From the NCBI GenBank assembly GCA_020137815.1, contig CM035357.1, positions 248,001 to 312,000 on the forward strand: a DNA stretch of 64,000 nt. Reading direction: 5' to 3'. Shown one piece after another: positions 9,881 to 57,904 of this stretch. Source of the stretch: Hormiphora californensis. Its lineage: Eukaryota > Animalia > Ctenophora. The position numbers and the translations under genes are program-made. Position 1 is the first letter of the stretch. Each line of letters begins with the position of its first letter. The notes under the pieces were generated by a model. It was not told where the DNA came from. It was given only the letters and a program-made list of their open reading frames with translations, and did not search any database.

Positions 9881-10069
9881 CCTATTATAGCGGTATGAAC
9901 ATAACGGGTGGTATGTACACTGCAGCCAATACTACTGCCCTCCCCCTGCCACCCAACCTTCCATCCCCACCTCCCCCACCCAGCCTCCCATCCCACAATA
10001 CTATCTAAACAACCTCCTCTAACCCTATTATAGCGGTATGAACATAACGGGTGGTATGTACACTGCAGC
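9881..10069 (+). repeat. Duplicated acceptor plus start-codon segment of the opsin
   Basis: cctattatagcggtATGaacataacgggtggtatgtacactgcagc occurs at 9881-9926 and 10024-10069. Confidence 0.85.
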
Positions 10070-13000
10070 TGTCCCATCAAATAGCACAGAGATCGATGTT
10101 ATGGGTATCGAACTGAGAGTATCCTTATCTCTTATCATGGCCTGTGTGTGCACTGGCAGTGTCTTCGGTGAGTATACATTGTAATATTATTGATTATTGT
10201 ACATTAATTATATTGGTACATATTACGAATTAAGAGAGGTAAAAGAATTGAGGGAGTTCGGGCAGTGAAATAATATACACTATCACTAGTAATTAGTTGA
10301 CTGTCTGAAAAGAGAGAGAGTCTCTCACTAGTAATTAGTTGACTGTCTGAAAAGAGTCTCTCACACAGAGTTTCCTATAGTACACACACCTGCTGACCAT
10401 GACGTACTGTAGTGTACTATAGTGACAGATCAGTTCTATTATACCCATTACAGTTTCCCCGGAAACTCTCCCGGAAATAATAAAGGGAGGTCTCACAATG
10501 AAAACTTGAGTAAAGAGTACACTGTATACATAGTAGGACTGTCAAATGTTATGTGTTATACATGGTTGTATTATTTGTTGTAGTGTTACTATCGTCCACA
10601 CTCCACTATACTGCTACTATTATTATATTGTAGAGTGTAGGAATGTAGTGTTACTTTGTCATAGTCTTGTGAAACTCTGGACCTCTCTCTTTCCTCTATC
10701 ATTCCCTTCTTTTGTCTATCCTTCTCTCTCTCCCTTTCTCTCTCTATCTTTTAATAATGGCGAATTAATTCTCCGGCTCAAAAGTAGTGAAGATTGACCT
10801 TCCGTGTTTGGGTGTTTTTTCCAATGAAAGATTTCACCATTCCACTTGACAACATTTATTTGATCAAAAGTTTTGATTCAAAACTTATTAGATCATGATT
10901 AGCGCTGAAGTTATCGATATTTTAAAGAAATTTACTAAATCATACTCGGTTATTAGATTATTGTACCCAGTTCTACACAAACTAAATCCCTGTATAATTA
11001 TAGCTCTATAATTGGTCCCCATTTCTTGTTCCGTCTAATTTCATATGTCTTTTTTTAAATCTTTGTTCTGAGCTGTTAATCGGTTTCCTACTACACAATT
11101 AACTATTCGTAGGAACCGACCGAAACAAGTAAACAACCAATCAGAGCTCGTTATTTAGGTCACGTGACTGGTTATCAGCCAATCAGCGACCAGTATTTCC
11201 TGATTCGGTCGGTTCCTGACATTTAACTATTCGTATTGCGCCAGTCGAAACTGCAAATTACAAAAGAGAAGAAAATGGAGGCTAAAATATTGTCCGTGTG
11301 TGTTTGTGTGTTTAGTGAAGTTTCAGTCAATAATGTTAGTGGTTGAGTGGATATATATGCAATGTTAGTGGTTGAGTGGATATATATGCAATGTTAGTGG
11401 TATGCAATGCTAGTGGTGATAATAATGGGCATTATTTCACTTAATTCAGCGATGCTGATCAAACATAAAACCATTATATTGATTTGCTAGTTATCTGAAA
11501 ATCTGAGGCCTACTTAAAACTTTTAACCAGCCACCTCGATCAGATGCGAAGTACTATTTAACAATATTTTACAATTAAAAAGTATTTAAGATCGTAACTA
11601 GCAATAAGTTAAGTAGGCCTCAGATTCTTAGATTCTCAGATAACTAGTAAATCACTAACGGTTTTATGTACGAACATGATGAACTACACCAGCTTGTGTT
11701 ATCTGCTCCTACTCCTTGGTGTGATGGTGATGGGCCTGATCACTGTGATTATATGTGACCTGCTCTTGGGATTAATTAGTTTCTCACACAAGATTAGGTT
11801 TAATCTTGTGTGAAATCTTGTATTCACACATACTAGCCAAGAAGAACGGGGGCCCCAGAAGAACATACACGATTAACATCTCCCAACATACAAGATGTGT
11901 TGATGTGTACGAGATTAAATGCCGGCATAATTGAGGGGGGCATCCGGCATATAAATTGTTTTCTTGAGATTTTCATTTCTTCCAGCTACTTTCACTGAGT
12001 GTTGTGGTCGACAGTGAAATACCAACCATAAACACTTGTTAGAGCAGGGAAACCCCAAACAATTACAGCAATAATTATGTCTTGAAAACATGTAAAACAT
12101 CCAGACCACCAGCGGTAATTAACCACCCCCTGCCTTGTTCGACCCTCTCCAACAACATCACAACTACCCCCCTCCTTCCCAGGTAACATGTTGGTATTTA
12201 TACCTTCCCCCCTTCCCAGGTATTTATATGTTCGACCATCTCTCTCCAATACCCCTCTGTTTCAGGTAACATGCTGGTGTTTATATCACTAGTGAAGGAA
12301 CGACCACTGCCAAACCCTGCCGTCGAGATGATCTTCAGACACCTCTCCCTGGCTAACTTGGTGTTGGCAGGAATAGGAGAACCACTCGTGGTGGTATCTC
12401 TTGCAGCAGGTACTTGTCTGTTTGTTTGTTTGTCTGTTTGTGTGTCTGTTTGTTTGTTTGGTGGTGTCTCTAGCAGCAGGTATTATACTTGTCTGTGTGT
12501 GTTTGTTTGTTTGGTTGTATGTTTGTTTGTTTGTTTGTTTGTCTGTTTGTTTGTTTGTTTGTTTGTTTGTTTGTTTGTTTGTTTGTTTGTTTGTTTGTTT
12601 GTTTGTTCGTTTGTTTGTTTGTTTGTTTATTTGTTTGTGTGTGGTCTCTCTTGCAGCAGGTATACTTGTTTGTTTGTTTGTTTGTCTGTTTGTGTGTTTG
12701 TCTGTTCGTTTGTTTGTTTGTTTGTTTGTTTGTTTGTTTGGTGGTCTCTCTTGCAGCAGGTATTATACTTGTCTGTGTGTGTTTGTTTGTTTGGTTGTAT
12801 GTTTGTTTGTTTGTTTGTTTGTTTGTTTGTCTGTTTGTTTGTTTGTTTGTTTGTTTGTTTGTTTGTTTGTTTGTTTGTTTGTTTGTTTGTTTGTTTGTTT
12901 GTTTGTTTGTTTGTTTGTTCGTTTGTTTGTTTGTTTGTTTGTTTGTTTGTTTGTGTGTGGTCTCTCTTGCAGCAGGTATACTTGTTTGTTTGTTTGTTTG

Positions 13001-16000
13001 TCTGTTTGTGTGTTTGTCTGTTCGTTTGTTTGTTTGTTTGTTTGTTTGTTTGTTTGTGTGTTTGTTTGTTTGTTTGTTTGATTGATTGTTTGTTTGTTTG
13101 TTTGTTTGTTTGTTTGTTTGTTTGTTTGTTTGTTTGTTTGTTTGTTTGTTTGTTTGCCACCACTTCATAACTCCATGGATTATAATAGTTGCCTTGTTCG
13201 TCCCTCTCTCCAAATGTAGAGAAGGGTTCATAACAATAATTCTCTTATTTCTCCCACATCTTTCTCGGTATGAACTGGAGTACCACGTACTCAAGTCTCA
13301 ACACGTACCCAACATGTATTGTAATTTATTAGCATTGATTAGGTGGGCTAATAAATTATTTCGTGTTTATCAATAATAATTCATCACTGGGAATATAATG
13401 CTATGGGAACGAATTATATATCAGTGGTTAGTAGTGGTTGTAAGACCCTTGTTCGACCAGAGTTTCGACCCCTATTTCCCTACGACCCTACCGCCCGTTT
13501 TTGTGTGTTTTTGTTTGAATAAAACAACGCATGTTTTATACGAAGCTGGGACGCCGCTCGCTCAGGGGGGTAATTTCATTACCAAATCTCTTTTCGTTGT
13601 TTTTTTTTGTTTTGATTAAATCAGTATTATACAAATCCTAACCATTGGCCGACTTTTGTTTCTGCGGAATGTCATTACTCATCCATGAAACTAAATTTCT
13701 GGTTGGATAAAGGTATTAGGCTGTCTCGCACTGACCCCTTCTCTCACGCTTCCCTCCTAGCAGTGAGCAAGGAGAGCAGTCAGAGTGTCGCGTTATTACC
13801 CAAGACATAATTAACACTGTACTACAGCTGTGCAGTGGATGTGGCAGATCCTAATTCATAGAAACATACACACAGAGACACAGACTTGACTGACTGACTT
13901 AGGGCGGCTTCCGTGTCCGAGCAACTATATCAGTCCGCACTCCGCCACAGCTCCCGGTTTTGCATAAGCTCCTTTATCTCGTTGTCGGAGGCAAGACCAG
14001 TATCGTCCCTGATTTGCTTAAGGAAAGTCTTCTGGGGCCTCCCCCTGCTACGATTCCCTCTGTCCGGCTCCCAGAAAAGAAGCTGGTGAGCAGTAAGCTC
14101 GGGGTGGCGCTGTATATGACCAGCCAGCCTTAATCTGCGAGCACGAACAGTTTCAGATGCCCTGCCCCCTGGGAATATTCTGATAGACGTCCTCATTCCG
14201 CACCTTGTCCCACCAATTGATACCCAGTGCCATTCTCAGCATGTTACTATGACATCCATCCAGGCGTTTTTCCAGACTAGCTGTAAGTGTCCAGGTCTCT
14301 GCTCCATAGAGTAGTATGGCTTCCACTGTTGTTCTGAACAGATTAACCTTGCAACTCCTCCTCATGTCAGAGACACAGAGAGACAGAGAGACAGAGACAC
14401 ATACACACAGAGACACAGAGAGTGTGTTTTATTCAGTGTGAGAGTCACCAAATTTACACAGTTAATAACAGACATTATACCAACACCCAGTAATTAACAC
14501 TTGGTCACGTACTACACCACGTACTATGGCAGTACTGCCACACTACCACACAATACACACCATACACATCATGTGTATGTGGCCTGCACTGCTGTACTTC
14601 TAATAATATCTTCCAAGTTGCAATATCACACGAATTACATGAAGCAAGAGCTGTAGTTAATTAACAACAATACCACAGTTGTTCACACAGTTGTTCACAC
14701 AGTTGTTCACACAGATACAACTTGAGGGCAATTCATTATTAATGAATAGCTTTTGCCTTTCAGATATGATTAATGAATCATTAATCAATATCTGAAAGGC
14801 AAAAGCTATACTTTCTGACGTGTTTTTCATAAGAAAAGGCTGTTTCTTCACATACATCATACATGATCTGTACATTGTGTGATGTACATTGTGTGATGTA
14901 CAAATGTACAATTATTTTACATCACAGAGATTCTCTTCTATTACTGTTTCAATTTTGAATGTAATAATAATGTAGCAATAATGTGTGGTAATAAATATGA
15001 AAATGTAACTCTGTTTAGAGCTAAATCTCACACAGTTACTAGGTATACTCAGATTCATTTGTGACGTGTCATCAACTATATATTAACCTCCTTCTCTCTC
15101 TCTGTCTCAGGAAAGTGGGTTTGGGGAGAGTCAATGAGGTTCTTTGAGGCCTTCTGGGTAACCACCTTTGGACTGTTCTCGATGATGATTCTAGGTCTGA
15201 TAAGTTTTGAACAATATTCTAGATTTGTGAAGCAACAACAACTCAAGACGCATCAGGTAATATATGTCAAACCCCTCCCCCCTCCCCCGTCCACTGCCCA
15301 ACTAATGTATGTCTAACCCAACTAATACATGTCAAGCCCCCCCCCCCTCAACGCTTGTAAAGATCCCACATGAACACCCTGTATATGTCATGATTAATTG
15401 TGGTTAGTTATATCTTGTTAGTTATATCTTGTTAGTTATATCTTGTTATTAACAAGTTCATGTGTTGCCACGTTAGATATGAGTCTCATTATCAATAAGT
15501 TGATGTAATAAATAGGGACAAATTGAGACTCGTTGATTTTATTTCAGGAATAACTCGACGTTTCGCCGTTCGACGGCATCATCAGGATAATCTATAAATG
15601 AAATGGGTCACATATTAGTAAAAATAGACGAAATACACGAAATATGATCTATACAAAATATACACACACGCAAAAACTAGGAACTGAACATTGTACTGAC
15701 TAGATAATAAACTGTTCAATCGTATCACCTTCTTCTCTCTTGTTAATAGTAGGCATTAATAGTTTAATATGGATTGCCTCCATCACCTTCCTTCTCACTG
15801 GTTGGTCAAGCCCAGTTTCCAGTATATTGAATTCTAGATCAGGAGGTTCTCCGTCATGAATAGTTGAATAGTGTGTCGCGAGAGCTTCATTAGGATAGGT
15901 ATTGGGCGATATTGCTGCCAATCTATGTTCTTTGAATCTCTCACGACACGGTCGTGCTGTCTCTCCTACATAAATCTGTTTACATAATTTACACTCAATT

Positions 16001-19000
16001 TTATATACAACGCCTTTAACTGTACAATCTAGGGTAGGGTGGTTTATGAGGGGGCATATGAGGCAGTTAGTGAGGTGACAATGGGGCCTATCATATGGTC
16101 GTGATTTACAGAACAAGTTCCGTAACTTGGTTCCTGGGGTGAATACAGTGCGAATAGGGAGGTTGTGAGAGGTGATAAATGATGTGACGAATTGGGTGAA
16201 TGATTCACTGATGTATGGAAGTTTGAGTACTGTTGAGTGATCGCGTGATGTGTTTATCTTCATAAGGCGTTGTTCAGACAGTTCTCTAGGATTCGGGTAT
16301 CCGTTGTTCATCAACAGCTTGTCAACAATGTTTCTCGAGTGATCCTGGTGGATAGCATTCGATGAACATGTATCTGCTGTTCGGTAGAAACTCCTGATAG
16401 TCTGGAGTTTCACAGTTTCCGGGTGATGACTGTTAGCATGGAGTGTGATAGGTTTCTTCTGAGGTTTCCGGAAGTATCTATGTTCGATGATACTCTCATC
16501 AGAAACACGTATCTCAGCATCCAAAAACGGAACCCAATCTCCTTTCTCTGGATAATCCACTTCCCACTGTAGAAGTTGGTCGGGGTCCTCTGCTGCTATA
16601 CTCGCCACCATTGCTTCAGCTTCTACTTTGGATCTGGCAAACGCTCCGGTATCGTCAACGTATCTCCCGTAGAATGTGAGGTGGAGGTCGAGGTATATAC
16701 TAGATCTTTCATACATGTACACACGGATGATGGCTGCCAAGGGGGATGGTTTACAACCCATAAACAGTCCGACTAGTTGTTGGTATAGCCTACTATTGTA
16801 CACAAAGAACGAGTTCTCCATGACACCGGATGTTGGATTTTGTCATGGAGAACTCGTTCTTTGTGTACAATAGTAGGCTATACCAACAACTAGTCGGACT
16901 GTGTGTACATGTATGAAAGATCTAGTATATACCTCGACCTCCACCTCACATTCTACGGGAGATACGTTGACGATACCGGAGCGTTTGCCAGATCCAAAGT
17001 AGAAGCTGAAGCAATGGTGGCGAGTATAGCAGCAGAGGACCCCGACCAACTTCTACAGTGGGAAGTGGATTATCCAGAGAAAGGAGATTGGGTTCCGTTT
17101 TTGGATGCTGAGATACGTGTTTCTGATGAGAGTATCATCGAACATAGATACTTCCGGAAACCTCAGAAGAAACCTATCACACTCCATGCTAACAGTCATC
17201 ACCCGGAAACTGTGAAACTCCAGACTATCAGGAGTTTCTACCGAACAGCAGATACATGTTCATCGAATGCTATCCACCAGGATCACTCGAGAAACATTGT
17301 TGACAAGCTGTTGATGAACAACGGATACCCGAATCCTAGAGAACTGTCTGAACAACGCCTTATGAAGATAAACACATCACGCGATCACTCAACAGTACTC
17401 AAACTTCCATACATCAGTGAATCATTCACCCAATTCGTCACATCATTTATCACCTCTCACAACCTCCCTATTCGCACTGTATTCACCCCAGGAACCAAGT
17501 TACGGAACTTGTTCTGTAAATCACGACCATATGATAGGCCCCATTGTCACCTCACTAACTGCCTCATATGCCCCCTCATAAACCACCCTACCCTAGATTG
17601 TACAGTTAAAGGCGTTGTATATAAAATTGAGTGTAAATTATGTAAACAGATTTATGTAGGAGAGACAGCACGACCGTGTCGTGAGAGATTCAAAGAACAT
17701 AGATTGGCAGCAATATCGCCCAATACCTATCCTAATGAAGCTCTCGCGACACACTATTCAACTATTCATGACGGAGAACCTCCTGATCTAGAATTCAATA
17801 TACTGGAAACTGGGCTTGACCAACCAGTGAGAAGGAAGGTGATGGAGGCAATCCATATTAAACTATTAATGCCTACTATTAACAAGAGAGAAGAAGGTGA
17901 TACGATTGAACAGTTTATTATCTAGTCAGTACAATGTTCAGTTCCTAGTTTTTGCGTGTGTGTATATTTTGTATAGATCATATTTCGTGTATTTCGTCTA
18001 TTTTTACTAATATGTGACCCATTTCATTTATAGATTATCCTGATGATGCCGTCGAACGGCGAAACGTCGAGTTATTCCTGAAATAAAATCAACGAGTCTC
18101 AATTTGTCCCTATTTATTACATCAACTTATATCTTGTTAGATTCTCAGAATTCAATTAATATGATTCTCAGCAGATCAAGGGATGTCCCCCTACTACTAC
18201 TAGTAGTAAGCCCCCCCCCTGGGATGAGATTCAGCTGTTTAACTCTGACCAATATGAGAGAGTTTCTAAGAAACTACCTTACTATATTATTCAGCTCCTA
18301 TAAATCTCGAGAAATTAGTGCAAATAAGACGCCTTGTATGGCGATATTTTCCTTGGAGAGGTGAGGTGAGAGAGTGAGATAGAGAGAGATAGAGAGAGAA
18401 GAAGAAGAAGCTCATTTTAGGGAAATATAGGCCGGGCCGCTGATAATACTGACCGGATCCTAAACAGAGGGTTAATTCTCTACAGGTTTCCCAAGGCATT
18501 ATAGTTAGGGAGAGAGGGTCTTTAATTGCGGCTCAGTGCCACTATGCGAGAGAGGGTCTTTAATTGCAGCTCAGTGCCACTATGATTATACCCACTGCGG
18601 AAGCTCTTTCATTGGTCTGCAAGGTGAACCACCCCAGTGGGACTCAGTGAACTGCACCTTTCACAAAGCGCACCTTTCAGTGTGTTGCACAATACACTTG
18701 CACACCTTGTGTTGACCAAGAATATTTACAGAGGGGGGGGGTGCTACAGAGAAAGAATTGTCTATTAAATCGGGGGGGGGGGGGGTGCCATTAATATAAC
18801 TCACTTGGTGGATTGTCTTTACTAAATATATAATGGATAAAGGTGGCTATAGTCGTGTTCTAGGCAAAGTACCAAATAACTTGGTGCTATTAGAGCACTT
18901 ACACAGTGAGACACGGCACCACAGTAAGACGGAACTATAACAGTGAGTACTTACACACTGAGAGTTATAGTTATAGTGCACTTTTGAATTGGTTCCAACG

Positions 19001-22000
19001 TGTAAAATAATTTCTCTGTGAGGTCAAACTAATGCACCATCCCTGTATATATTACTCTAAACGGCCCTTGTCCGTCAATATACCACCTTTACGGTAAAAG
19101 GAAACTACTAGTATTCACACAGGTGGGCCCCTGAGTATGTGATACTACATGTCCTGGGGGTAGTATCCCATCTAATGGGTTTTATAATGGGACCATGGTT
19201 TTATTCAACCCTCCCGTATTATATTTGATAACAATCGAGGAGTGAGAATCTTAGAATCTAGAGTACGGTATGCTTCAATCAGATTAGACAATTTGAATTT
19301 TGTAGACCCACTACTCACTAGATCACTATAGCATTGACCAATACCATGTGATCTTTCTCTTTAACAATATTCAATAAATATTGTTCATGAATAATATCTA
19401 AAATATATCTAATAACTAATCAACATGAAGCAATGAATAGTTAAACATGATTCTAGTTCCTGAACTGGTTCTCTATCCAATCAACATTCTCATATAACTA
19501 CTGGGTTAGAACTGCTGGATTAGTTTGGTTTCTGAGAAACGATGTACTTTAAATTAATTTCTCAACTATGTGTGACAGATGCATGATGGGGGTATGATGG
19601 TGCTCAGAGTTTCTAGGAATTTGAGCACCAGATTCAAGGATATATGTTTGAGGCGGTTGACCGAAAGGAGACAAATATTCAGAGGTCCTGGGGCTTTTAA
19701 AGAACATTAAAATGGTAAATAAAGAGGCTTTCACGGGAGGGAGGGAGGGATGGGGGAAGCTGTCTTCCCCTGCTACATCCATCTGTACCTGTCCACACCT
19801 TTCAGACGTTCATATTCCCAAACCAAATGTTGAGTCACTTTCACCGCACCCCTACCTAATAGTATATTACACTTGGTATAGTCAGGTTTCAATATAACAG
19901 TGTGTTTCTTGCAGGATTCAATACAGTGTGTGTTTCTCATCACACAGGTATGTACTATTTACCAATGTGTATATTTATTGCAGGTAGCAGTGCTGTTGTC
20001 AGGTATCTACTTCCTGGCATTCTTTTTCGGGATCGCTCCACTGGTTGGCTGGTGTGAATACGGACCTGAGGGTAAGTGACACTATCTAATATTATGTGGG
20101 AACAGGGGTTCACCAATAGGAGATCAAATAGAAGATCCAATAGGAGATCATATGGCTTCTCTTTGGTCTCCTAGTGGATGGCTCCGAGCCATCACCACTC
20201 ATCTGATTAATTGAAAATATATGTGATATGTGTGATATGATAAACTTTGATTGAAAAGTTGAGTCGAGAAAATGGTAGGGTGGTTCCTTGCACAGCGAGA
20301 CGCTACTACTGTAATACTGCAATTTATTACAAATCTCAGTGGTGTTCTCTAAAAGTGTTCTCTATCAGCCTCTTTATGAATAAATCAATTTAACCCAGCC
20401 ATTATATTACAAAGATTTATAAAGAACTAGCGCACCCATTGGGTGCGCCTCAAGTAAGGGCTTTTTGATAACCCACCCGGCTTCGCCGGGTGGTTCTTTT
20501 CACCCCTTTTAACGTAAATAACACGGTTGCCATGGCAACTGAATTGGTAACTATGGGGACTGGCATGTTAAAAGTCATTCGAAAATATTGACAAACTTTC
20601 ACTGGAAGTTCCAAAAGTGTGAGTAACAGCTTTACAGCTTTGGTCACATAAAGTGTTTTATGAAGGAGCAGTCTGTCGCTTAGATACCGCTTAACGAACG
20701 ACTTCGACTTCGACGCGACATCTCCAAATTATAATATAGATAGTCTTGCCAGACAGATGGTATAAGGGTTGAACGATTTTTGCAAGAAGGGTATCTCTCT
20801 CACTCTCTCTTTCACTCTCTCACTCTATCTCTCTATCTCTCTCACTCTCTCTCTCTCTCTCTCTCTCTCACTCTAACTATCTTTCTCTCTCCCTCTAACT
20901 ATCTACCTCACTCCCTCTCTCTCTCCCTCTCTCCCTCTAACTATCTACCTCTATTGAAACAGCAGTAGTCATTATAATGTAGTCTCCTCGAGAGTATGAT
21001 GACGCACAGCTCTCTTCATCTAGTTTCCCCCTCGTCTGACTGAGCCCCCTGGTCACCTCTCTATCTTGGGGGGGGGGGGGGGAGAGATATCGCAACAGTG
21101 ATCCTCGTGCTTGAGCCTGAAAACCAATTAACGATTTGGCGGGAAGTCTTTGTTTAGGAGTACGAATTTAATTTAAAACACAGGGATATCCCTCTAGACC
21201 CCATTTTTCTCTAAATGAACTATTCTCTTTAGTGGTGGCAGCTTCCAAAATCCGTGTTTGTGTACGTCACATTAATTAGGTGAAATAATTCCAATTATTC
21301 TCCTTACCAACAACCTATGTCTCAGTCCAAGAGTGTTTGTACGTAACGCGCGATGTTTCAGAGCTAGTCTTTATCGCGCGCCTAGAATATTAGCCACATC
21401 CTACTCGACCTCCAAAGTTTGATGATTTCATTCAACTTCCCCTTCGGTGGCGGGTTCACTGAAATGTTCATGGGAAAGGCGATAAGTCGATTAGATCATA
21501 GCACAGTCGGACCCCGATTTACCGGGATGCTTATGTATTTTCCCGGTAAATCGGGGTGTCCAGTATACCGGGGGCCGTTAAATCGGGGTCAGACTACGTC
21601 ATATTATTATCCAACATTCCACTGCAGTACTGGCAAGCGTTAAGGTATAAGGTCATAGAAGGACCTCTTGTCTTTCAGCAGTTTCAGGCCATTCATCGTA
21701 TCAAAAAAGTTAAATTTCCCCTAATAAGTTAGTATGCTGCGAAGTTGCCCCTAAACACCAACCGAATCTATATTTCTAACCCCTGACCTCGTACAATAAT
21801 ACAAATACTCCATGGAGGCTATTTAACTCCCTATCTCCCCCAGGTTATGGTGTCAGTAACTCTCTCCCTCTCTCCCCCAGGTTATGGTGTTAGTAACTCC
21901 CTCCCTATCTCCCCCAGGTTATGGTGTCAGTAACTCTCTCATGTGGAACAATCTGAACGACAACAATGCTAGTTATATAATCTGTGCAATGATCGTGGGA

Positions 22001-23578
22001 TACTTCTTCCCTCTTATCATCATCATGTTTTGCTACAGAGCAATATATAGACTTGTACAGGTATGAGCAATCTATAGACTTGTACAGGTATGAGAGGGTA
22101 ATATATAGACTTGTACAGGTAAGAGAGGGACTATTAGGAATTATTAATGATCACATTTATAAATGAAAGTCCCACTACTTCAAAATTCCACCCTATTTTA
22201 TATGTGTCATTCTACCCTAACTGTCCCAATTTGAGATTTTGAGCTGTTCGATATGTTTCCTGACCTTTGTTTGTTTCAGGCGCAGCTAAACACATCGGTG
22301 GTTAAAATGACAGTTAGTGCGAATGTAACTAGTCTGTCTACAAACCGGAATCACATAATGCTGGTGAGTAATGACAAACTATCTTGTAATGCTGGTGAGT
22401 AATGCATGACATCTTTTTGTTATGCTGGTGAGTGTTGGTGGTGGTGGTGGTGGTGGGTTATAGCGTGTCAAACTCTGCAGCGCAGAACGACATAGCTACC
22501 TCGAGTTATAGCGTCTGTCATCGTTATTGTGGTATTAGATGGCATTATTTACTCAGTACTCAGCTGTTGTCAATGCTGTTGAGTATGCTGCAAAGGTGCT
22601 ATAGGTATCCCCCTCCTGCTGATGTATGGAACTGAAGGGCGGGGTTTCTTTCTAAATTAAAAAGTGGGAAAATAGTTTAAAAGATTAAACCTTATAAAGT
22701 GTGCCAGTCGGTCGTGGTAACAGAATCAAGCTGTGTGAAGATTATATAGATTCTATACAGAATCTAGTTCCACTATGTACTACCTACCCCTCCCCCCCCC
22801 CCCTCGGATCAAGGGGGATTACATCATGATCTTCGACCAAGAAGGTTTTATACTTGCTCCTATGCATTCCCCCAGGTCCAACCGTTATATAACTCCAAGA
22901 GATTCCTCTAGTACTGCACACCCCCTGTCGGAGCATTGGCCTGACAGACACCGCCTTTTCCATAATTATGGACATGCTATATACCAGCTGCTCAAAAGAA
23001 AAAGACCCCCCTTTTCTCTAACACCACTCCCCCCAATATAGGTGCAAGAGAGACAGTTAGCATCTACCATAACATTTGTCATCCTGTCCTTCTTCTTTGC
23101 ATGGACGCCCTACGTGTTCGTTAACATTATCAACATGTTTAGCACTCTCGTTCTGAAATACAGGATTCTAGCTACGGTAAGTGGACGCCCTACGTGTTTG
23201 TTAACATTATCAACATGTTCAGCACACTCGTTCTAAAATACAGAATACTGGCAACGGTAAGTTATATTGCTAATCAAACAATTACCGGGCGGATAATAAC
23301 TTCCGACTGTATAACATCAGGACATGATCAAACAGATCTTTAAAACGCCCTTTTCACAGAATCTAACAATAACTCTCAACCCCCCAGATTCCCCCTAACA
23401 GTGCCCAACAACTCCTAAACCACCCCCTCCCCTTTTCCAGATTCCAGCCCTCTTTGCCAAATCCTCGACCCTCTGGTGGATAATCGTGTATTGTTTGATG
23501 GATGTCAGGATTAAAAAGGCGTGCAGGAAGACTTGTCTTAGATTTAAACGGTCGTTCCGTGTTTGGTACTTCTCTTAG
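10038..23578 (+). CDS. Opsin, ctenophore opsin-1-like, 335 aa. Exons 10038-10167, 12266-12409, 15111-15256, 19984-20071, 21918-22060, 22280-22363, 23042-23176, 23441-23578
   Basis: All junctions are GT-AG and in phase (1008 nt). 7-TM motifs: N-glycosylation sites NIT/NST, TM1 GN, TM3 WGESMRFFEAF..FEQY, EL2 PLVGWCEYGPEG, TM5 YFFPLIIIMFCY, TM6 AWTPY, TM7 IPALFAKSS with the retinal-binding Lys (bovine K296). Confidence 0.93.
11111..11217. mobile_element. 107-bp terminal-inverted-repeat MITE (Pleurobrachia-type dispersed repeat)
   Basis: aggaaccgaccgaa...ttcggtcggttcct, with ttaactattcgt on both sides. It translates as EPTETSKQPIRARYLGHVTGYQPISDQYFLIRSVP, which I recall as a repeat-derived peptide common in P. 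bachei gene models. Confidence 0.7.
12410..13156 (+). repeat. (GTTT)n microsatellite containing four extra copies of the opsin exon-2 end plus donor
   Basis: gtggtNtctctNgcagcag|gtat recurs at about 12460, 12641, 12740 and 12957 inside the GTTT tract. Confidence 0.9.
13884..14365 (-). mobile_element. 5'-truncated RTE-clade non-LTR retrotransposon, 3' end
   Basis: LLYGAETWTLT...RMALGINWWDKVRNEDV and RRLRLAGHIQRH...RSRGRPQKT are typical RTE ORF C-terminal motifs. One frameshift near 14160. (GTCA)n tail. Inserted in a cagagacacaga tract. Confidence 0.85.
15495..18130. mobile_element. Penelope-like retroelement: two 5'-truncated copies joined head-to-head in opsin intron 3
   Basis: Mirror ORFs 15700-16821 (-) and 16903-17925 (+) encode an RT C-terminus (YGRYVDD, PFLD) and a GIY-YIG endonuclease (GVVYKIEC..YVGET..RFKEH). 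Inversion centre at about 16822-16842. The right arm has a deletion of about 40 bp near 16900. ttatatcttgttag occurs on both flanks. Confidence 0.92.
18032..18072 (+). ncRNA. Minimal hammerhead-ribozyme-like core in the Penelope 3' region (mirror copy on - at about 15553-15590)
   Basis: CTGATGA (18040-18046), stem gccgt-cga-acggc, then GAAAC and GTC. Penelope-like elements are known to carry minimal hammerheads. Stem I pairing is weak. Confidence 0.55.
20427..20740 (-). mobile_element. Non-autonomous Helitron
   Basis: On - it begins TCTATATTAT and ends with the hairpin gcgcaccca-a-tgggtgcgc overlapping CTAG. It sits between A and T with no TSD. Confidence 0.7.
21823..22435 (+). repeat. Triplicated splice sites of opsin exons 5 and 6
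   Basis: Acceptor ccccag|gttatggtgtYagtaactc x3 (21823-21940). Donor tatagacttgtacag|gta x3 (22040-22125). Donor atgctg|gtgagt x3 (22355-22435). Confidence 0.9.
23102..23261 (+). repeat. 80-bp tandem duplication of the opsin exon-7 3' end plus donor
   Basis: Copies at 23102-23181 and 23182-23261 both encode WTPYVFVNIINMFSTLVLKYRILAT followed by gtaag. Confidence 0.95.
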
Positions 23579-25178: not shown

Positions 25179-28100
25179 TTAATCTGAATTTGCCACATAT
25201 GGTTTATCCTCTGAACCGTATATCTCTGATCCTTCTTCTTCCTCCTCAGCGACCGATTGGTCGGGGGTCGGGGTCGCTGAAAGGGTGAGGTTTGGTGAAA
25301 TTGCACACTTAGAGGATGTACCGTACAGAATAGAAGTGTGTGCAGTGTGTACTAGTGCGGTGTTGGGTCCCCCTATATTAGAATTCTACATCTAGAGATC
25401 AGTATACTCTCTATAGATACCTCTCTTACCTCTCTTTCCCTCGGATACCCTGAGTTCTCTCTTACCTCTCTTCCCCTCGGATACCCTGAGTTCCCTGACC
25501 AATCTGATCCTCTCCTCTTCCTGTCTGCGTCTCTCCTCCTCGATCCGTGCCTTCTCTGCTCTCCTTGCTATCTTCCTCCTGACTGAGAACGGGTCCTCAG
25601 GGTCCTCTATACTGGATACCTCTGTTCCTGTACTGTCAGTGTACACGCTAGCCTGGTGATGGGAGTTGTTGAGTAAGGGGTGGAGTAGTATACAAGTAAA
25701 CTTAGAGTTGGCCAGCTAGCTACGTTAGGGCTTCAGACCCCCTAACACCAGGAATTGAACTTCAGTTCAGTTTTTGGCCCCAAGTAACAATTAACAATCG
25801 GTTATTCAAGTGGTGATACAATTAACAATTAACAATTATAGTTACCTCTGACTCCGAGGGGGTGAGAGCAGTATCGATATCAGAATAGATATCTGATTCC
25901 CCACCAAAGCTGATATTGTCCGCCAGGTTCTGGGCCAGAGCTTGACGGGGTGTTTGCACCAGGTTGGTCACTTGGAGTGCATCCTGGGTGTGGTTAATTA
26001 ATTAATTTATTCACTATAGATAGCGTGATCATATATCAGTGAGTACTTAATTAGTAATCACTTAGTAATTAATCACTTAGTTAATAAGCAATCAAATAAT
26101 AATCACTAAGCAATTAATAATTAATTAATTAATCACTAACCACTACTTCCTCCTCTTCCTCTTCCTTGTAGTAATCATAACAGTGAGGCTTGAAAGGGAA
26201 ATTCTTGATGCAGTTCACACAGCCAACCTGGAGAGAGAGTAATATTATATGTTACTGCCTAGTAGATATAAAGGAGTGAAATTTGTTGAATAACTATCAT
26301 ATAACATTTATTAACTACACAACGAAAAACAGTTTTCCGTTTTCATCAGTTTTATTATCAAACAAACATAATATTTACCAATGTAAAGGTGAAGAGGAAT
26401 GGTGCTAGATACAAAATGTAGATGGCTTACCAATGTAAAGGTGAAGAGGAATGGTGCTAGATACAAAATGTAGATGGCAGAGGAGATATAGATCATCGGT
26501 TTAGGCCACACTTGTTGCTTGAAATACAGCTCTAACACCGCTGAAATAATTAACAGCTAATTAATTAATTAATTAACAAGTACCTTTGAAATAGTTAGTG
26601 AATATAATAGTTAGGAGAGTCTTAACAACTGTGTTCCACTTACAACTGTGTTCCACTTACAACATACAACCCTCCTTTAGGGAAAACTCAGCTCTAACTG
26701 AATGGCATCCCATTAATGGGATCCCATCAACAGTAAAACTCTAACTGCAGATAATGGACCACAGTGATGGTTCTTTCTCTGTATTCTCCCAGGTGGTGAG
26801 CTGCAACTTACAACTGTTTGCTGCGGTGATACCATCCTCTTCAAGAGAGTCCCCCGCCCCTCTTATCCCTATTGACCACCCTCACCCCCTATATGACTCA
26901 TCTCACCCTCGGCTCACTCCCCTCGCCCCATGTTCTAACCCTCCTTTACATGTGCACGTGGCAACTTACAACTATTTGCTGCGGTGATCCCATCCTCTTC
27001 AAGAGACTCTGCGGTCGCTGATCCCAGATACGTCATCTCAACTCTGAGGAGACTACCGAACTCTAGTACAGCTCGGAAAATAGCCATCCCTACCATACCT
27101 GATGAGTAATGGTTGGATGCTTTGGTTACGAAGTTACCCCTTGCCAGCGCGCGCGAAGTGTGAGGTGTCTTAATAAAAATATGTCGGGGAAAAAAATGTC
27201 GGGGAAATAAAAATAATTGGATAAACACCTTAATTACAGTCGGACCCCGATTTACCAGGAGGATAAAATTCCCCCGATATAGGAAATTAACAGAATTTGA
27301 CCCCGATATATCGGGCATCGCGGTCCGACTATCCGACTGTAGTACTAATTAGTAACTAAGAGTAATTAACAGTAATTAACAGTAATTAGTAATTACCTGC
27401 TGGCACGATGAAAGGCCACACGAACATCCAGTAGTAATGAAGATGATGCATGCTGTACATGAACATTGCGTTGTTCAGTCTGTACATACTGTATACCCAG
27501 GTACCCGCTATCACCTGTTAGGAGACGTCATGTGATCATATATATGGAGGTGTGAACATTATCATGTCCATATATGGGGGTGTGAACATTATCATGTCCA
27601 TATATGGGGGTGTGAACATTGAATGACTATATATGGAGGTTTGAACATCATCATGTCCATATATGGAGGTGTGCTGGTGTGAACACTATCATGTCCATAT
27701 ATGGAGATTTCTCACCATGATGGCTGATAGGATGGGGACAGGCCAACCGTATGCGAACTTTTCGAATATCTGATACATAAAGAATCCGAATCCCGTATTG
27801 AGAGCGTACACCTGGGAGAAAAGAAACTGAAATTAGTAAATTAGTAAATTAGTAAATTAGTAAATTAGTATATTAGTAACAATTTTAAATAATGATTGGA
27901 GAAATAGATTGGGTCAATAAAATACATGACAATTGACATCAGTTGTACCTGTGCGAGTTACTTCGAACTCTATACTACTTTCGCGGGCAGGTCATCCTCC
28001 AGACGCAGCAATTGCACAAACAAACAAACAAACAAACAAACAAACAAACCTGTGCAAGTGCAGCACAGAGAGCAGCCACCAACAGACATGAGGGGATTCG

Positions 28101-31100
28101 GGAGAAATTTAGGAAACCTGCTCCATAGACAGAAGTAGCCATAGTCTCAATAATTGCCTGGAGAGATCGTTACTTTAACTAGGGAGAGATTAGAAGAAAT
28201 GAGAAAGTAGAAGAAATGAGAATAGGGTTAGCTGACAATTTACACCATGTACTAATAGTACAACAATAGTAAATATACCTGGATACATAATGAACTAATT
28301 ACCTAATTAACACTAATTAGCACTAATTACTAATTAGCAACATGTTCTATTATATACCTGGATAGATCCGATACTATTCATCACAATACACATCAGCATG
28401 AGAGGGAGTATCGCCAGGGAGTGCTTGTGAAATGACAGAGAGTCTGCTATTGTAGCCATGAAGAGATAGGAACCACCAGCATCCCTGCAATAAAACATTA
28501 ATTGCTTGGAATTAATCAATCAATCTAGTAAATCAATCAATTATGAATTAACAAGTTGCAATTATATACAGCTGTAATTAGATCTGTACAAGAATTGAAC
28601 GAGGAAAAAGACCAGAAAAGACTAAATACTTTCTGAGGTACATTGTATACAGTGCTACCAGACCTAATTTCATTATTTAATTGAAACCAAGTTTCAATAT
28701 TCAATTGAAACCATTTTTTCGCTATAACACTGGAACCTATATTTTCAATATATATACGAACCTGTTCATGACATCTTTTATTCTAAACTCAACTCGGTCG
28801 GTCAGAGTTGACACGAACCTGTTCATGACATCCTTTATTCTAAACTCAACTCGGTCGGTCCGACGAACCTGTTCATGACATCCTTTATTCTAAACTCAAC
28901 TCGGTCGGTCCGACGAACCTGTTCATGACATCCTTTATTCTAAACTCAACTCGGTCGGTCAGACGAACCTGTTCATGACATCCTTTATTCTAAACTCAAC
29001 TCGGTCAGTCAGACGAACCTGTTCATGACATCCTTTATTCTAAACTCAACTCGGTCGGTCAGACGAACCTGTTCATGACATCCTTTATCCTAAACTCAAC
29101 TCGGTCGGTCCGACGAACCTGTTCATGACATCCTTTATTCTAAACTCAACTCGGTCTGTCAGACGAACCTGTTCATGACATCCTTTATTCTAAACTCAAC
29201 TCGGTCCGTCAGACGAACCTGTTCATGACATCCTTTATTCTAAACTCAACTCGGTCTGTCAGACGAACCTGTTCATGACATCCTTTATTCTAAACTCAAC
29301 TCGGTCCGTCAGACGAACCTGTTCATGACATCCTTTATTCTAAACTCAACTCGGTCGGTCAGACGAACCTGTTCATGACATCCTTTATTCTAAACTCAAC
29401 TCGGTCGGTCAGACGAACCTGTTCATGACATCCTTTATTATAAACTCAACTCGGTCGGTCCGACGAACCTGTTCATGACATCCTTTATTCTAAACTCAAC
29501 TCGGTCTGTCCGACGAACCTGTTCATGACATCCTTTATTCTAAACTCAACTCGGTCGGTCCGACGAACCTGTTCATGACATCCTTTATTCTAAACTCAAC
29601 TCGGTCGGTCCGACGAACCTGTTCATGACATCCTTTATTCTAAACTCAACTCGGTCGGTCCGACGAACCTGTTCATGACATCCTTTATTCTAAACTCAAC
29701 TCGGTCGGTCCGACGAACCTGTTCATGACATCCTTTATTCTAAACTCAACTCGGTCCGTCAGACGAACCTGTTCATGACATCCTTTATTCTAAACTCAAC
29801 TCGGTCGGTCAGACGAACCTGTTCATGACATCCTTTATTCTAAACTCAACTCGGTCGGTCCGACGAACCTGTTCATGACATCCTTTATTCTAAACTCAAC
29901 TCGGTCGGTCCGACGAACCTGTTCATGACATCTTTTATTCTAAACTCAACTCGGTCGGTCCGACGAACCTGTTCATGACATCCTTTATTCTAAACTCAAC
30001 TCGGTCGGTCCGACGAACCTGTTCATGACATCCTTTATCCTAAACTCAACTCGGTCGGTCAGACGAACCTGTTCATGACATCTTTTATCCTAAACTCAAC
30101 TCGGTCGGTCCGACGAACCTGTTCATGACATCCTTTATTCTAAACTCAACTCGGTCGGTCAGACGAACCTGTTCATGACATCCTTTATCCTAAACTCAAC
30201 TCGGTCGGTCCGACGAACCTGTTCATGACATCCTTTATTCTAAACTCAACTCGGTCGGTCCGACGAACCTGTTCATGACATCTTTTATCCTAAACTCAAC
30301 TCGGTCGGTCAGACGAACCTGTTCATGACATCCTTTATCCTAAACTCAACTCGGTCGGTCCGACGAACCTGTTCATGACATCCTTTATTCTAAACTCAAC
30401 TCGGTCGGTCCGACGAACCTGTTCATGACATCTTTTATCCTAAACTCAACTCGGTCGGTCAGACGAACCTGTTCATGACATCCTTTATCCTAAACTCAAC
30501 TCGGTCGGTCCGACAAACCTGTTCATGACATCCTTTATTCTAAACTCAACTCGGTCGGTCAGACGAACCTGTTCATGACATCCTTTATTCTAAACTCAAC
30601 ACGAACCTGTTCATGACATCCTTTATTCTAAACTCAACTCGGTCGGTCCGACGAACCTGTTCATGACATCCTTTATTCTAAACTCAACTCGGTCGGTCAG
30701 ACGAACCTGTTCATGACATCCTTTATTCTAAACTCAACACGAACCTGTTCATGACATCCTTTATTCTAAACTCAACTCGGTCGGTCAGACGAACCTGTTC
30801 ATGACATCCTTTATCCTAAACTCAACTCGGTCGGTCAGACGAACCTGTTCATGACATCCTTTATTCTAAACTCAACTCGGTCGGTCCGACGAACCTGTTC
30901 ATGACATCCTTTATCCTAAACTCAACTCGGTCTGTCCGACGAACCTGTTCATGACATCCTTTATTCTAAACTCAACTCGGTCGGTCCGACGAACCTGTTC
31001 ATGACATCCTTTATTCTAAACTCAACTCGGTCGGTCAGACGAACCTGTTCATGACATCCTTTATCCTAAACTCAACTCGGTCGGTCAGACGAACCTGTTC

Positions 31101-34100
31101 ATGACATCTTTTATTCTAAACTCAACTGGGTCGGTCAGACGAACCTGTTCATGACATCCTTTATTCTAAACTCAACTCGGTCGGTCAGACGAACCTGTTC
31201 ATGACATCCTTTATTCTAAACTCAACTCGGTCCGTCAGACGAACCTGTTCATGACATCCTTTATTCTAAACTCAACTCGGTCAGACGAACCTGTTCATGA
31301 TATCCTTTATCCTAAACTCAACTCGGTCGGTCAGACGAACCTGTTCATGACATCCTTTATTCTAAACTCAACTCGGTCCGTCAGACGAACCTGTTCATGA
31401 CATCCTTTATTCTAAACTCAACTCGGTCGGTCCGACGAACCTGTTCATGACATCCTTTATCCTAAACTCAACTCGGTCGGTCAGACGAACCTGTTCATGA
31501 CATCCTTTATCCTAAACTCAACTCGGTCGGTCCGACGAACCTGTTCATGACATCCTTTATCCTAAACACAACTCGGTCGGTCAGACGAACCTGTTCATGA
31601 CATCCATTATTCTAAACTCAACTCGGTCGGTCCGACGAACCTGTTCATGACATCCTTTATTCTAAACTCAACTCGGTCGGTCCGACGAACCTGTTCATGA
31701 CATCCTTTATTCTAAACTCAACTCGGTCGGTCAGACGAACCTGTTCATGACATCCTTTATCCTAAACTCAACTCGGTCGGTCAGACGAACCTGTTCATGA
31801 CATCCTTTATTCTAAACTCAACTCGGTCGGTCCGACGAACCTGTTCATGACATCCTTTATTCTAAACTCAACTCGGTCGGTCCGACGAACCTGTTCATGA
31901 CATCCTTTATTCTAAACTCAACTCGGTCGGTCCGACGAACCTGTTCATGACATCCTTTATTCTAAACTCAACTCGGTCGGTCCGACGAACCTGTTCATGA
32001 CATCCTTTATTCTAAACTCAACTCGGTCGGTCCGACGAACCTGTTCATGACATCCTTTATTCTAAACTCAACTCGGTCGGTCCGACGAACCTGTTCATGA
32101 CATCCTTTATCCTAAACTCAACACGAACCTGTTCATGACATCCTTTATTCTAAACTCAACTCGGTCGGTTAGACCGTAGAACTTCTTCCTCTCGGGATTG
32201 TGCATGATGTTGTTCATATAGTTGACATTAAGGAATACAAACAACATGAACACTAAATTCCCAACCCAGGCGTAACATGTAATTACCATTCCTGAAGAGA
32301 AATGTGTTATACTTTTATATTGCATTGAATCACTCTGATCACATTCAAGACATCTGGACATCATGTGTGAAATTGTGTGATCTGTTGGATGTATCTCATG
32401 CATCTCACGTACCCTGCAAGCCTCTCTCTCACGTACCCTGCTAGCCTCTCTCTCCCTCTCCCACGTACCCTCTCTCTCTCCCTCTCTCACTCAAGTTGAC
32501 CCAGTTATCACGTACCCTGTAAGTTGACCCAGTTATCACGTACCCTGCAAGTTGACCCAGTTATCACGTGGATTGTAAGATGAGAATGCAATGTTAACTC
32601 CTGTTCCAATGGCATGGAATGTCATAGTCACAATTCCTGGAAACAGTTCATTAAATCATTCATCATTCTATCAATGTAATATAGCTGGTAAGAGTCATTA
32701 TATCTTGATGTATTGTGCCATTTTGTATGTGATTTTTAATGGAAAGCACACGATAGTATATTCACGGTACCTGCTACGATAGAATGTATCTGGTTACCAT
32801 GGTTACATGTACCTGCTTCAGCCCAGTTGTTGGGTTTGCTAAAGTACCGTCCAACGGAATGTATGAAGGTCTCATCGTCAGTATCCCTCTCAAGCTCAAA
32901 TAACATTTTAACTAGCTCAGCATTAATACCACCACGAAGTGCTGGAGTTTAAATGAGGGGAGGGGGGTTTCATGAGAGATGTGTTTTATGGGGCTCTTTG
33001 ATATAAACAGCTGATATATATACACAGTCGGACACCTTGAGTTACATGGGTGCAGTATTTAAAGTCCGTTTCAAGCGACTTGACCCGTAATTCTTGGAAT
33101 TTGGCGCATTGCGCGTGTATTTACAAAGGGGAAATCCTGAATTTCCAGGAATCTCAGGTCAAGTCGTTTGAAACGCACTCTAGTAGGTAGAGTAGAGAAA
33201 TCTCTAGCTCTGGGTGCAGTAATAGCATGTATGGTTTATGATCAAGATATCAATTTGATAATATCGTAATATAATTATCCGTTTGTAAAAGAAAGACATA
33301 AGTCCGACTGTGTATCAGAGCTGTCTCTCAAAGTGCCCTCTCTGTTACCTGCCTCTACCCATTTCTCTGCGTCACTAAAATTCTCCTGCAACTGCACCCA
33401 CGGACCATCCCGCAGCCCAAACAACATTCCAAAAAGTTCCTCATTCCACCCACCACGCACCGCTAATTAATTAATTGACTTTTAATTAGTGTATTAATTT
33501 TCACTCCACAGTTCTTTTCGTTGAGTAATTGGATGAATAATTGATTAAATAATTAATTGTTTAATCTAGTAATTAACTGATTAATTAATTCATTCATAAT
33601 GCTTGATATACTTACAGATGTAGATGCACCCCAGAATTATCCCAAAGAGAGGTATAATGTACTGAATACCAAACAAAATATGCCGGAGAGACGGTTTGAT
33701 GGCCGTGATCAGCGCTATAAAGTTAACCAGGATTAATTAGTTAATTAGTTAATTAGTTAATTAGTTAATTAGTTAACGAGGATTATGAGTACATTTCAAA
33801 GGGTACTATTTTACTAATCTTAGTAAAATATTAAAGGGTATTATACATACTGACATTTCGAAGGGCACGGTTATTATATTTTACTAATCTTAGTAAAATA
33901 TCGAAGGGTATACATTTTAACTCACCAATAAACAGGAACGTGAACATGCACATGTATCTGTTCTCCTTGTCAGCGTGAGTAATAAACAGACTTGTGAAAT
34001 CATTGAAATACGTTGTCACATTTGTTGTTCCCTCGGTGTTGTTTCTAGCGATGAATGTCTGATAAAACTCAGTGTTCTCCAGCTTCTCTGAAATGATGAC

Positions 34101-37100
34101 GTTATCTGATTATTGTGCAATCATTGTGCAATCATTGTGCAATTATTGTGCAATTATTGTGCAATCATTGTGCAATCATTGTGCAATCATTGTGCAATCA
34201 TTGTGCAATTATTGTGCAATTATTGTGCAATCATTGTGCAATCATTGTGCAATCATTGTGCAATCATTGTGCAATCATTGTGCAATCATTGTGCAATCAT
34301 TGTGCAATCATTGTGCAATTATTGTGCAATCATTGTGCAATTATTGTGCAATCATTGTGCAATCATTGTGCAATTATTGTGCAATCATTGTGCAATCATT
34401 GTGCAATCATTGTGCAATTATTGTGCAATCATTGTGCAATCATTGTGCAATCATTGTGCAATTATTGTGCAATCATTGTGCAATCATTGTGCAATCATTG
34501 TGCAATCATTGTGCAATCATTGTGCAATCATTGTGCAATCATTGTGCAATCATTGTGCAATCATTGTGCAATCATTGTGCAATCATTGTGCAATCATTGT
34601 GCAATCATTGTGCAATCATTGTGCAATCATTGTGCAATTATTGTGCAATCATTGTGCAATCATTGTGCAATCATTGTGCAATTATTGTGCAATCATTGTG
34701 CAATTATTGTGCAATCATTGTGCAATCATTGTGCAATCATTGTGCAATTATTGTGCAATCATTGTGCAATCATTGTGCAATCATTGTGCAATTATTGTGC
34801 AATCATTGTGCAATCATTGTGCAATCATTGTGCAATCATTGTGCAATCATTGTGCAATCATTGTGCAATTATTGTGCAATCATTGTGCAATTATTGTGCA
34901 ATCATTGTGCAATCATTGTGCAATCATTGTGCAATCATTGTGCAATTATTGTGCAATCATTGTGCAATTATTGTGCAATCATTGTGCAATTATTGTGCAA
35001 TCATTGTGCAATCATTGTGCAATCATTGTGCAATTATTGTGCAATCATTGTGCAATTATTGTGCAATCATTGTGCAATCATTGTGCAATCATTGTGCAAT
35101 CATTGTGCAATTATTGTGCAATCATTGTGCAATTATTGTGCAATCATTGTGCAATTATTGTGCAATCATTGTGCAATCATTGTGCAATCATTGTGCAATA
35201 GACTTATCAATGGAAACCTATGTGGACTCCATCGCACTGTGTACACTCAGATTAGGAATTTGAAATTAAAATCGAGGTCCGTGGCACCACAGGAAACAGT
35301 AAAGAAATGTGAGAGTGATTATATAAACATACACACACATATACATATATACATATAATAGATATATCTACCTGTGAACTCTAGCTTGTAAGTTTGGAAC
35401 TGGAAGAGGGTGGGGGAATACTTGCAAAACACGTTTATCTGTTCATCCCATATTTCTTGTAGATCTTCGTAGCGGCTATAAATTAGTGTATTATTATAAT
35501 AGTGGGACTATAAAGTAACTTGTAGCGGCTATAATGTAGTGTAGTGTTATCACAGTTAAACTATAAAGTAACTTGTAGCGGCTATAATGTAGTGTAGTGT
35601 TATCACAGTTAGACTATAAAGTAACTTGTAGCGGCTGTAATGTAGTGTAGTGTTATCACAGTTAGACTATAAACTATAAAGTAACTTGTAGCGGCTATAA
35701 TGTAGTGTAGTGTTATCACAGTTAGACTATAAAGTAACTTGTAGCGGCTGTAATGTAGTGTAGTGTTATCACAGTTAGACTATAAACTATAAAGTGACTT
35801 GTAGCGGCTATAAATTAGTGTATGATTATAGTGTATTGTTATTGTGAGACTCACAAAATATTGTAACTGAGATACGTGTTTTCACAGAATATTTTGTGAA
35901 GACTATAGGTACGTAAGTATATTTATAATAATATGTATACAGGGTATCTCCTTCCGGCTTGGTCAACAGGGACAAAATGAAAATACGGTGGTTTATTAAT
36001 CAGAACAGTTTCGATGTAACAACATCTTCATCAGCCTCAAATTAATTTGTTGAAAAGTATAATACTGAAGTTGCAATTACTCTGTAGGGAGTGTGTCGGC
36101 AGATGTCACTACGGGATCTGTACCAGTACAATATTTGGCCTTCATTTCATCCGTGGTATTACTTGATCCACACCACTGGTAAAAGCAGTTGTTCCAAGGG
36201 AACCTGGAATGGGAATTATAGGGTGAGATACATAATGTATATGAGGTATAAACTCTTGCCAGTGGCGCGTTATTTCAGATACCTTTCTCCCAGCGCGCCG
36301 CTGGGAGAAGGTAGCTGTAGTTTATCCGCCACTGGCGGATAAACTGGTTTAAATCACGACGACGATCCCGAGGCGTAGCCGAGGGAGAGGCGGAGGGGTT
36401 TAAACCTATAACGCGTCTGTGGCAAGAGTTTATAGGTTATATACCCTGCTTTAGTTGTTTGTTACAAGTATTACACACTAACAAGAGAGAGAACACTAAT
36501 CAAAACACATAAAGAGAACTGAGAAACAGTCAAAAATTGAGTGTACATTGTTTGGTAACAGTTACTAAGGAGAGAGAGAAAGATATAACAAGATATGGGG
36601 CATGCCAGACATAACACAGAGGAATTGAGATAGTGAAACAAAAGGGAAGATAAAGAGAGAGTAATTGACGGAATGTGTTGTTTCTTTCTCTCCAATTTAG
36701 TGTGTAACTCTTCCAAACAGTGTTCCCTCTGTATTTCAGTAAGAACTGATCATTTACACACACTTTGAATGTAACATAGGAGTTAAAAATAAATAACCTG
36801 CCAGTGGGAAATAATCTGCCGCTGGACTGGCTGGTTATCGAGAGCGCGCTAGTGGGACTTCTCGCAACTGGCGCATTATTTAAGTTAGCAGGGTATATAT
36901 ATGATAAACCGCTTTTGAAAGCAGTGAGGTAGCCGTAAAGTCTTTCTTAAGTGGTATCTTACAAATATGCTACAAAGCAGGATAATTAATGTTGTTGATG
37001 GTGATGATATGACTGTACTTTAATTTAGTACAAAAACAACGACAATATAATTGGTAACCATGGTTACTAACAGATGAAGCGCCTCCCCAGGAAGGAACGA

Positions 37101-57820: not shown

Positions 57821-57904
57821 ATGCCTCCTCCCCCCGGACCCCCACCTCCTCCTCCACCTCCACCTCCAGGTGGACCCCCTTGTCCATGCTGCATCATCCT
57901 ATAA
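57821..57904 (+). CDS. 27-aa polyproline CaaX microprotein MPPPPGPPPPPPPPPPGGPPCPCCIIL
   Basis: Hand-translated; below the ORF-track cutoff. Acceptor ttttag lies 14 nt upstream. The C-terminus matches its neighbours. Confidence 0.72.
   Translation: MPPPPGPPPPPPPPPPGGPPCPCCIIL

Follow-up and report, generated by a model that had tools for sequence, protein, structure and literature searches.

A doubled opsin exon end in a ctenophore whose two copies differ only at silent sites

The window, a stretch of 64,000 nucleotides from the ctenophore Hormiphora californensis, contains an opsin gene that raises a question: how does a piece of DNA that is probably untranslated come to differ from the exon beside it by silent changes alone? 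At the donor of exon 7 of this gene, opsin-1, lies a head-to-tail pair of 80-nt units (period 80, 2.0 copies), each comprising the last 25 codons of the exon followed by GTAAG and encoding the same 25 residues. The copies differ in eight codons (copy 1/copy 2: TTC/TTT, TTT/TTC, ACT/ACA, CTG/CTA, AGG/AGA, ATT/ATA, CTA/CTG and GCT/GCA), in every case at the third position and silently, corresponding to 8 changes at 17.0 synonymous sites and none at 58 other sites. The initial annotation had reported this pair, and we find its coordinates and codon list to be exact. If eight changes fell at random, all would be silent with a probability of 7e-6 to 7e-5, for a transition bias of 1–8. Under plain duplication on one chromosome, with the exon constrained and the intron copy free, the probability is 3e-4 to 2e-3. 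The pair was chosen as an extreme, and 13 other junction copies in the window, described below, give the same pattern without it. The match at period 80 is 81 nt long, leaving an overlap of 1 nt at the join. The positions of the features discussed are collected in Table 1.

Table 1. Location of the opsin-1 pair, its host gene and the neighbouring features, in positions of the window
Feature	Position	Strand	Remarks
Opsin-1 gene	10038..23578	+	8 coding exons; intronic copies at 5 of 14 junctions
Opsin-1 junctions with intronic copies	12266 acceptor, 12409 donor, 21918 acceptor, 22060 donor, 23176 donor	+	Junction scan
Opsin-1 exon 7	23042..23176	+	135 nt, helix 6 region; last 75 nt are the coding part of copy 1; tblastn of P0001
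Copy 1	23102..23181	+	25 codons and first 5 nt of upstream donor, GT at 23177; probably the donor used
Copy 2	23182..23261	+	Probably intronic; residues as in copy 1, with 8 silent differences; GT of second donor at 23257
TAA stop	23234..23236	+	Reached if second donor used: 19 new codons past the last exon codon, then stop
Partial copy of exon 8 acceptor	23368..23421	+	Same intron as copy 2; skipped by X1, X2 and X5 contigs (23367 joined to 23422)
Opsin-1 exon 8	23441..23578	+	Holds helix 7, whose retinal lysine aligns with that of spider rhodopsin
Double SLC6 (SNF) transporter gene	25466..51019	-	35 exons modelled by hand, 1505 codons, 0 stops; copies at 9 of 69 junctions
50-nt minisatellite	28756..32169	-	End of SLC6 exon 26 and donor; 68 copies scored; recurrent variants all silent
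31-nt minisatellite	44406..49839	-	Acceptor and start of SLC6 exon 4; every recurrent variant silent among 169 copies scored

By its predicted product the host gene is an animal opsin, with the rhodopsin-family fold (7tm_1, PF00001, E 3e-23) and a helix 7 lysine that aligns with that of spider rhodopsin 6i9k. The eight-exon model differs at two of 314 residues from opsin-1 of the ctenophore Pleurobrachia bachei (P0001), which in a weak search was the single protein match to one exon query, at 100% identity. P0001 carries a normal junction between exons 7 and 8, and the haplotype behind it may differ from that of the window. Nothing suggests that the opsin protein itself has changed. Where spider rhodopsin has the two cysteines of its helix 3/loop 2 disulfide, the product has Arg and Asn (15111–15256 and 21918–22060), as does P0001. 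An in-frame ATG lies 21 codons upstream of the P0001 start in an open frame (10038–10100), and a duplicate of the start region occurs 143 nt further upstream (9881–9926). Intron 3 holds a perfect palindrome (15495–18130) with 1230-nt arms and inner 62-nt arms; each arm has an open frame (380 and 343 amino acids), which we take to resemble the end of a Penelope-type reverse transcriptase and a GIY-YIG nuclease. Very high-copy short elements lie in intron 4 at 20426–20745 and 21503–21560 (depth 1e4 to 8e5), and the first is absent from another haplotype, where a contig skips 20426–20739.

The donor signal ACG/GTAAGT is present at the end of both copies and is therefore repeated in the intron. 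The initial annotation held that the 80-nt unit cannot be used in frame, and this is borne out: splicing from the second donor would add 80 nt and run into a TAA stop before helix 7. It also held that copy 2 has no acceptor with a pyrimidine tract. The AAG that precedes copy 2 has 8 pyrimidines in the 15 upstream positions compared with 9–15 for the seven true opsin-1 acceptors, making it the weakest of the eight, though only just below that of exon 4. Splicing to it would lose the first 20 codons (60 nt) of exon 7. We infer that copy 2 is intronic and that the upstream donor is the one used. A tandem duplicated or mutually exclusive exon was considered and rejected: the first 60 nt of exon 7 are missing from copy 2, its acceptor has the weakest tract and read-through meets the stop. 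Intron gain was rejected too. In the Rogers model, as cited in passages of PMC3087553, a unit with AG/GT is duplicated and one unit is removed as a new intron. There is no AGGT in either copy, and re-splicing at the copy end would have no AG because the donor is preceded by ACG.

We sought copies at all 83 splice junctions of opsin-1 and the adjacent SLC6 gene, counting as a copy a splice dinucleotide with at least 10 exonic bases and scoring it blind to codon position. The census covers these two genes only and leaves out copies with fewer than 10 exonic bases, such as those of the opsin exon 6 donor and exon 8 acceptor. Intronic copies were found at 14 junctions. The nearest copies at these carry 24 silent changes at 111.9 silent sites, with a single residue change at 383.1 other sites, a Leu to Phe in two of the four copies at SLC6 exon 1. 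With the focal pair removed, 16 silent changes and one non-silent remain at 13 junctions (P 6e-10 against random change and 1e-6 against the plain duplication model). At three of the 14 junctions the nearest copy has no silent difference, and identical copies exist, for example at SLC6 exon 32 and at opsin 21844. The initial annotation had singled out the exon 7 pair as the clearest single case; it is that, but as one of 14 such junctions and in a described class. Its 8 differences at 17 silent sites compare with 0.17 per silent site in the others, giving P 0.004 if sites are independent and 0.09 if they share one genealogy, before allowing for its being the extreme of 14. The focal pair is the top of a window-wide distribution and no different in kind.

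Copies are also more frequent at junctions than elsewhere in a masked control, at 13 of 82 real junctions versus 57 of 1479 pseudo-sites, a comparison biased towards enrichment as arrays were masked. Eleven of 42 tandem arrays contain a junction, where about 3 would be expected; the expectation is rough and biased low, since it used the smallest period of merged arrays.

Two long arrays lie in the SLC6 gene. Its product joins two transporter domains in a single chain of some 1500 residues, an arrangement shared by the ctenophore relatives P0002 and P0003, and along its length it is 69% identical to proteins of Bolinopsis and Mnemiopsis. Two similar consecutive exons, at 33349–33462 (114 nt, translated by hand) and 32813–32941 (129 nt) on the minus strand, are in the same phase, and the Bolinopsis and Mnemiopsis proteins have one such segment; they are candidate mutually exclusive exons. 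Two of the junctions in this gene have grown into minisatellites. Taking both arrays together, all seven variants present in at least two copies are silent, while of the variants seen once two are silent and eight are not, where the random silent share is 23%. The singletons are as new mutations or sequence errors would be. One threonine codon, a fourfold site, shows all four third bases within the arrays. A mutation bias blind to the reading frame is excluded as the cause of the pattern, because the silent-only changes in the window include first-position changes in leucine codons and transversions; moreover the array singletons show the random ratio. Further along the window, at 57000–63500, short reading frames rich in proline or glycine are clustered, which end in Cys-Cys-x-x-Leu-stop, presumably a prenylation-like end, and one of these frames sits in a perfect 270-nt direct repeat (57647 and 58064).

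We compared contigs from four of seven public runs with the window; none of the seven is on record as RNA covering the stretch. Runs X1 and X2 come from one sample (S1), possibly the source of the assembly. Each has one contig over 23110–23593 with no difference from the window, at depths of 32.1 and 44.1, near that of a single haplotype and below the roughly 48 and 70 of shared sequence. Beside it lies a second haplotype that differs. The summed depth over 23128–23274 is 54.2 in X1 and 74.1 in X2, given an assumed choice of second-haplotype contig in this one sample. Expected sums are 53.7 and 73.6 for one second-haplotype copy aligned to copy 2, 50.1 and 68.8 for one aligned to copy 1, 65.8 and 90.2 for two copies, and 37.1 and 50.9 for none. 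A second haplotype with one copy of the 80-nt unit fits these sums. Assuming a word length of 31, the contig ends at 23119 and 23110 place the haplotypes as identical over 23090–23139 and parting at 23140. That this position is one of the eight sites is a weak pointer, since eight of the 17 silent sites belong to that set. From the unbroken contig the second haplotype would share no 31-mer with copy 2, and thus copy 2 is not simply the exon of the second haplotype.

The source animal is very polymorphic. All five exonic differences from the window are silent, among the 40 listed of 351 differences, and within exon 5, which has 26.7 silent sites, at least 3 differences of this kind separate the S1 haplotypes (a rate of 0.11 or higher, among the differences listed). 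Introns diverge far more, with 18 letters and 18 gaps over 22675–22909. Junction copies themselves come and go. The partial copy of the exon 8 acceptor is polymorphic, because contigs of X1, X2 and X5 skip it, and X5 has a contig that returns from 23074 to 23027, crossing the exon 7 acceptor, which suggests a different duplication there (23027–23074) in sample S2. A further run, X7, taken by guess to be RNA and included by its species label, joins the end of exon 7 straight to exon 8. Its opsin departs from the window in amino acids as well as in letters (14 of 99 and 21 of 109), and both GCT and GCA occur at the same codon. It looks like a related species, and is silent on splicing of the window haplotype. 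A metagenome scan with P0001 gave 87 pattern matches and no confirmed locus.

The reading that we favour, with a probability of roughly 0.6, is that a tandem duplication straddling the exon 7 donor gave the pair, that copy 2 is likely spliced out, and that the two copies are likely different alleles of one exon end brought together by recombination with the homologue. First, ordinary slippage or break-repair duplication would have doubled the 80 nt with its 1-nt overlap. Use of the upstream donor would then leave the protein unchanged, so that copy 2 would be tolerated, as the precedent of human F7 and the stop that is otherwise met suggest. The doubled 81 nt would allow the single exon end of the homologue to pair with either copy, and a crossover or conversion in the shifted register could write the exon end of another allele into copy 2, or replace copy 1. 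Exchange of this kind, if much faster than mutation, would seldom leave intron copies the time to gain amino-acid changes. The copies would differ mostly at silent sites because the alleles of the source animal do so, and the scarcity of amino-acid changes would follow because exchange outruns mutation. Copy 2 needs no function and probably has none.

How fast exchange might be can be estimated from the 13 chromosomes in about 97 Mb given in passages of PMC8527503. One crossover per chromosome corresponds to about 7e-8 crossovers per base per gamete, which is 7–70 times a mutation rate of 1e-8 to 1e-9, both rates being assumptions. Turnover of the junction copies between haplotypes, at 23368–23421 and in the backward step of the X5 contig, speaks for the favoured reading, as do the depth sums and the probable parting of the haplotypes at 23140. 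Points against it are the lack of any 31-mer shared by copy 2 and the second haplotype, the high focal value, the single Leu to Phe change and the three nearest copies with no silent difference. On reasoning alone we rejected conversion confined to the two copies on a single chromosome, since this would remove silent and non-silent differences equally. The initial annotation had taken both copies to have a history as coding sequence, for example as two deeply diverged alleles joined by unequal exchange. A coding history, most likely as alleles, is supported because the silent-only pattern goes beyond frame-blind mutation bias and the animal is very polymorphic. Deep divergence is needless, given a focal value that is the top of the common distribution, and homologous exchange is unlikely as the origin of the duplication because 1 nt of overlap is too little for it.

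A rather improbable alternative, though the best placed of those considered, is an origin in one step: repair of a break near the donor would have taken an 80-nt stretch of the other allele as its template and finished by end-joining, so that the copies would have been distinct alleles since their origin and would simply be young. This would yield the silent-only differences and the 1-nt join together. The youth that it needs is suggested by junction copies present in one haplotype and absent from another, and the excess of junction-containing arrays would fit a preference for them set by homology that stops at exon edges, although that excess rests on the lowered expectation noted above. By itself a one-step origin leaves unexplained the four silent states and several recurrent silent variants within one long array, and the identical copies at SLC6 exon 32 and opsin 21844 are what duplication on the same chromosome gives. 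For this single pair, a one-step birth from the homologue would look alike.

An origin of copy 2 in a sister species or in a second opsin-1 gene would account for its 0.47 differences per silent site, but we consider it unlikely. That value lies above those of the other junction copies and of the exon 5 alleles, and X7 shows that a clearly diverged opsin, with GCT and GCA at the same codon, occurs under the same species label. Against this, the X7 protein differs within the copied stretch and that of copy 2 does not, and the genealogy-based P of 0.09 covers eight or more differences. No paralogue of opsin-1 shows in S1 because only two contigs cover exon 5 at 80% likeness, and none is found among the protein matches (one match, in a weak search).

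It is more doubtful still that copy 2 is coding sequence of an alternative transcript, maintained by selection on the protein. Coding constraint does usually show as divergence at silent sites alone, and copy 2 is preceded by AG and followed by a GTAAGT donor. Each route into it is poor, however. The second donor gives a frameshift and a stop before the retinal lysine; the AAG acceptor, reached from the exon 6 donor, would drop 20 helix 6 codons at the weakest of the eight tracts; and a GC-AG intron over copy 1 would need the poor donor TTT/GCATGG. The same pattern is moreover seen in the 31- and 50-nt units, which singly cannot be included in frame. Finally, a join of two haplotypes of one animal with an overlap in the assembly is very unlikely as the source of the pair, since separately built contigs of two runs, with a different second haplotype beside them, cross the join and both copies without a difference, even if those best-matching runs may be the assembly's own sample and the species is very heterozygous, with many unmerged haplotypes in an older assembly (passages of PMC8527503).

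The arrangement at exon 7, a head-to-tail unit lying over a real exon–intron boundary with its splice signal repeated in the intron, is that of a class of junction-spanning tandem repeats termed mirages. Those of amphioxus Adh3 are reportedly the subject of work by Canestro et al. in 2002. As passages of Ebner et al. 2010 (PMC3087553) describe them, mirages in Adh3 and in the globins BflGb6 and BflGb9 are copies at either exon end that keep their AG/GT signals, vary in number between haplotypes and have no reported effect on splicing; units are 81–100% identical and evolve in concert, and these passages do not mention codon position. BflGb9 has a single duplicate of an exon 3′ boundary, as in the opsin-1 pair, and its host is likewise a highly polymorphic marine invertebrate. 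The window differs in coming from a ctenophore, in having copies at 14 of 83 junctions in two genes, and in differences that are almost only silent.

In humans, donor-repeating minisatellites include the 37-bp VNTR of F7 intron 7 and arrays in LMNB2, PDGF, CBS intron 13 and 6-16 (Borensztajn et al. 2006, PMC1557585). There too the first unit spans the exon–intron boundary and repeats the donor, and splicing of F7, LMNB2 and PDGF takes the most upstream donor exclusively, the choice that opsin-1 needs. The F7 unit has 4 exonic bases, compared with 75 in the opsin-1 pair, and in CBS and 6-16 nearby pseudo-donors are also used (PMC1557585); mammalian splicing data may not hold for ctenophores. 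The 844ins68 allele of human CBS is a polymorphic two-copy duplication of an intron–exon junction, 68 bp long and spliced out, from which gene conversion has been proposed to move sequence into exon alleles (passages of Vyletal et al. 2007, PMC2630376). It lies on the acceptor side, unlike the opsin-1 pair, and has one non-silent variant in its silent copy, not many silent ones (PMC2630376). Human alleles are too alike to leave a silent-only signature. In the literature searched, which covered few subscription papers, we found neither a silent-only signature of junction copies nor a case of them in a ctenophore. The structure is already known from mirages and the human junction repeats; the silent-only feature, measured on 14 junctions, was not found in that literature.

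This is DNA that is probably untranslated and yet has the textbook signature of selection on a protein. The ratio of non-silent to silent rates in the junction copies is about 0.01, without coding use on our reading of them. In polymorphic marine animals such copies can mislead both exon finding and dN/dS tests. The pair also makes donor choice in a ctenophore testable, as there are two identical GTAAGT donors 80 nt apart of which only one gives an opsin. The proposed exchange with the homologue offers a testable answer to the turnover of junction-spanning repeats, the origin of mirages being called unclear in passages of PMC3087553. A wider, and tentative, possibility is that in very polymorphic animals the exon alleles of homologues repeatedly feed the intronic copies of exon ends, maintaining across a sixth of junctions a protein-clean archive of past and present alleles that could return versions to the exon. 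If that were true, long arrays would record many captures, and the balance of recombination and mutation could be read out from one genome.
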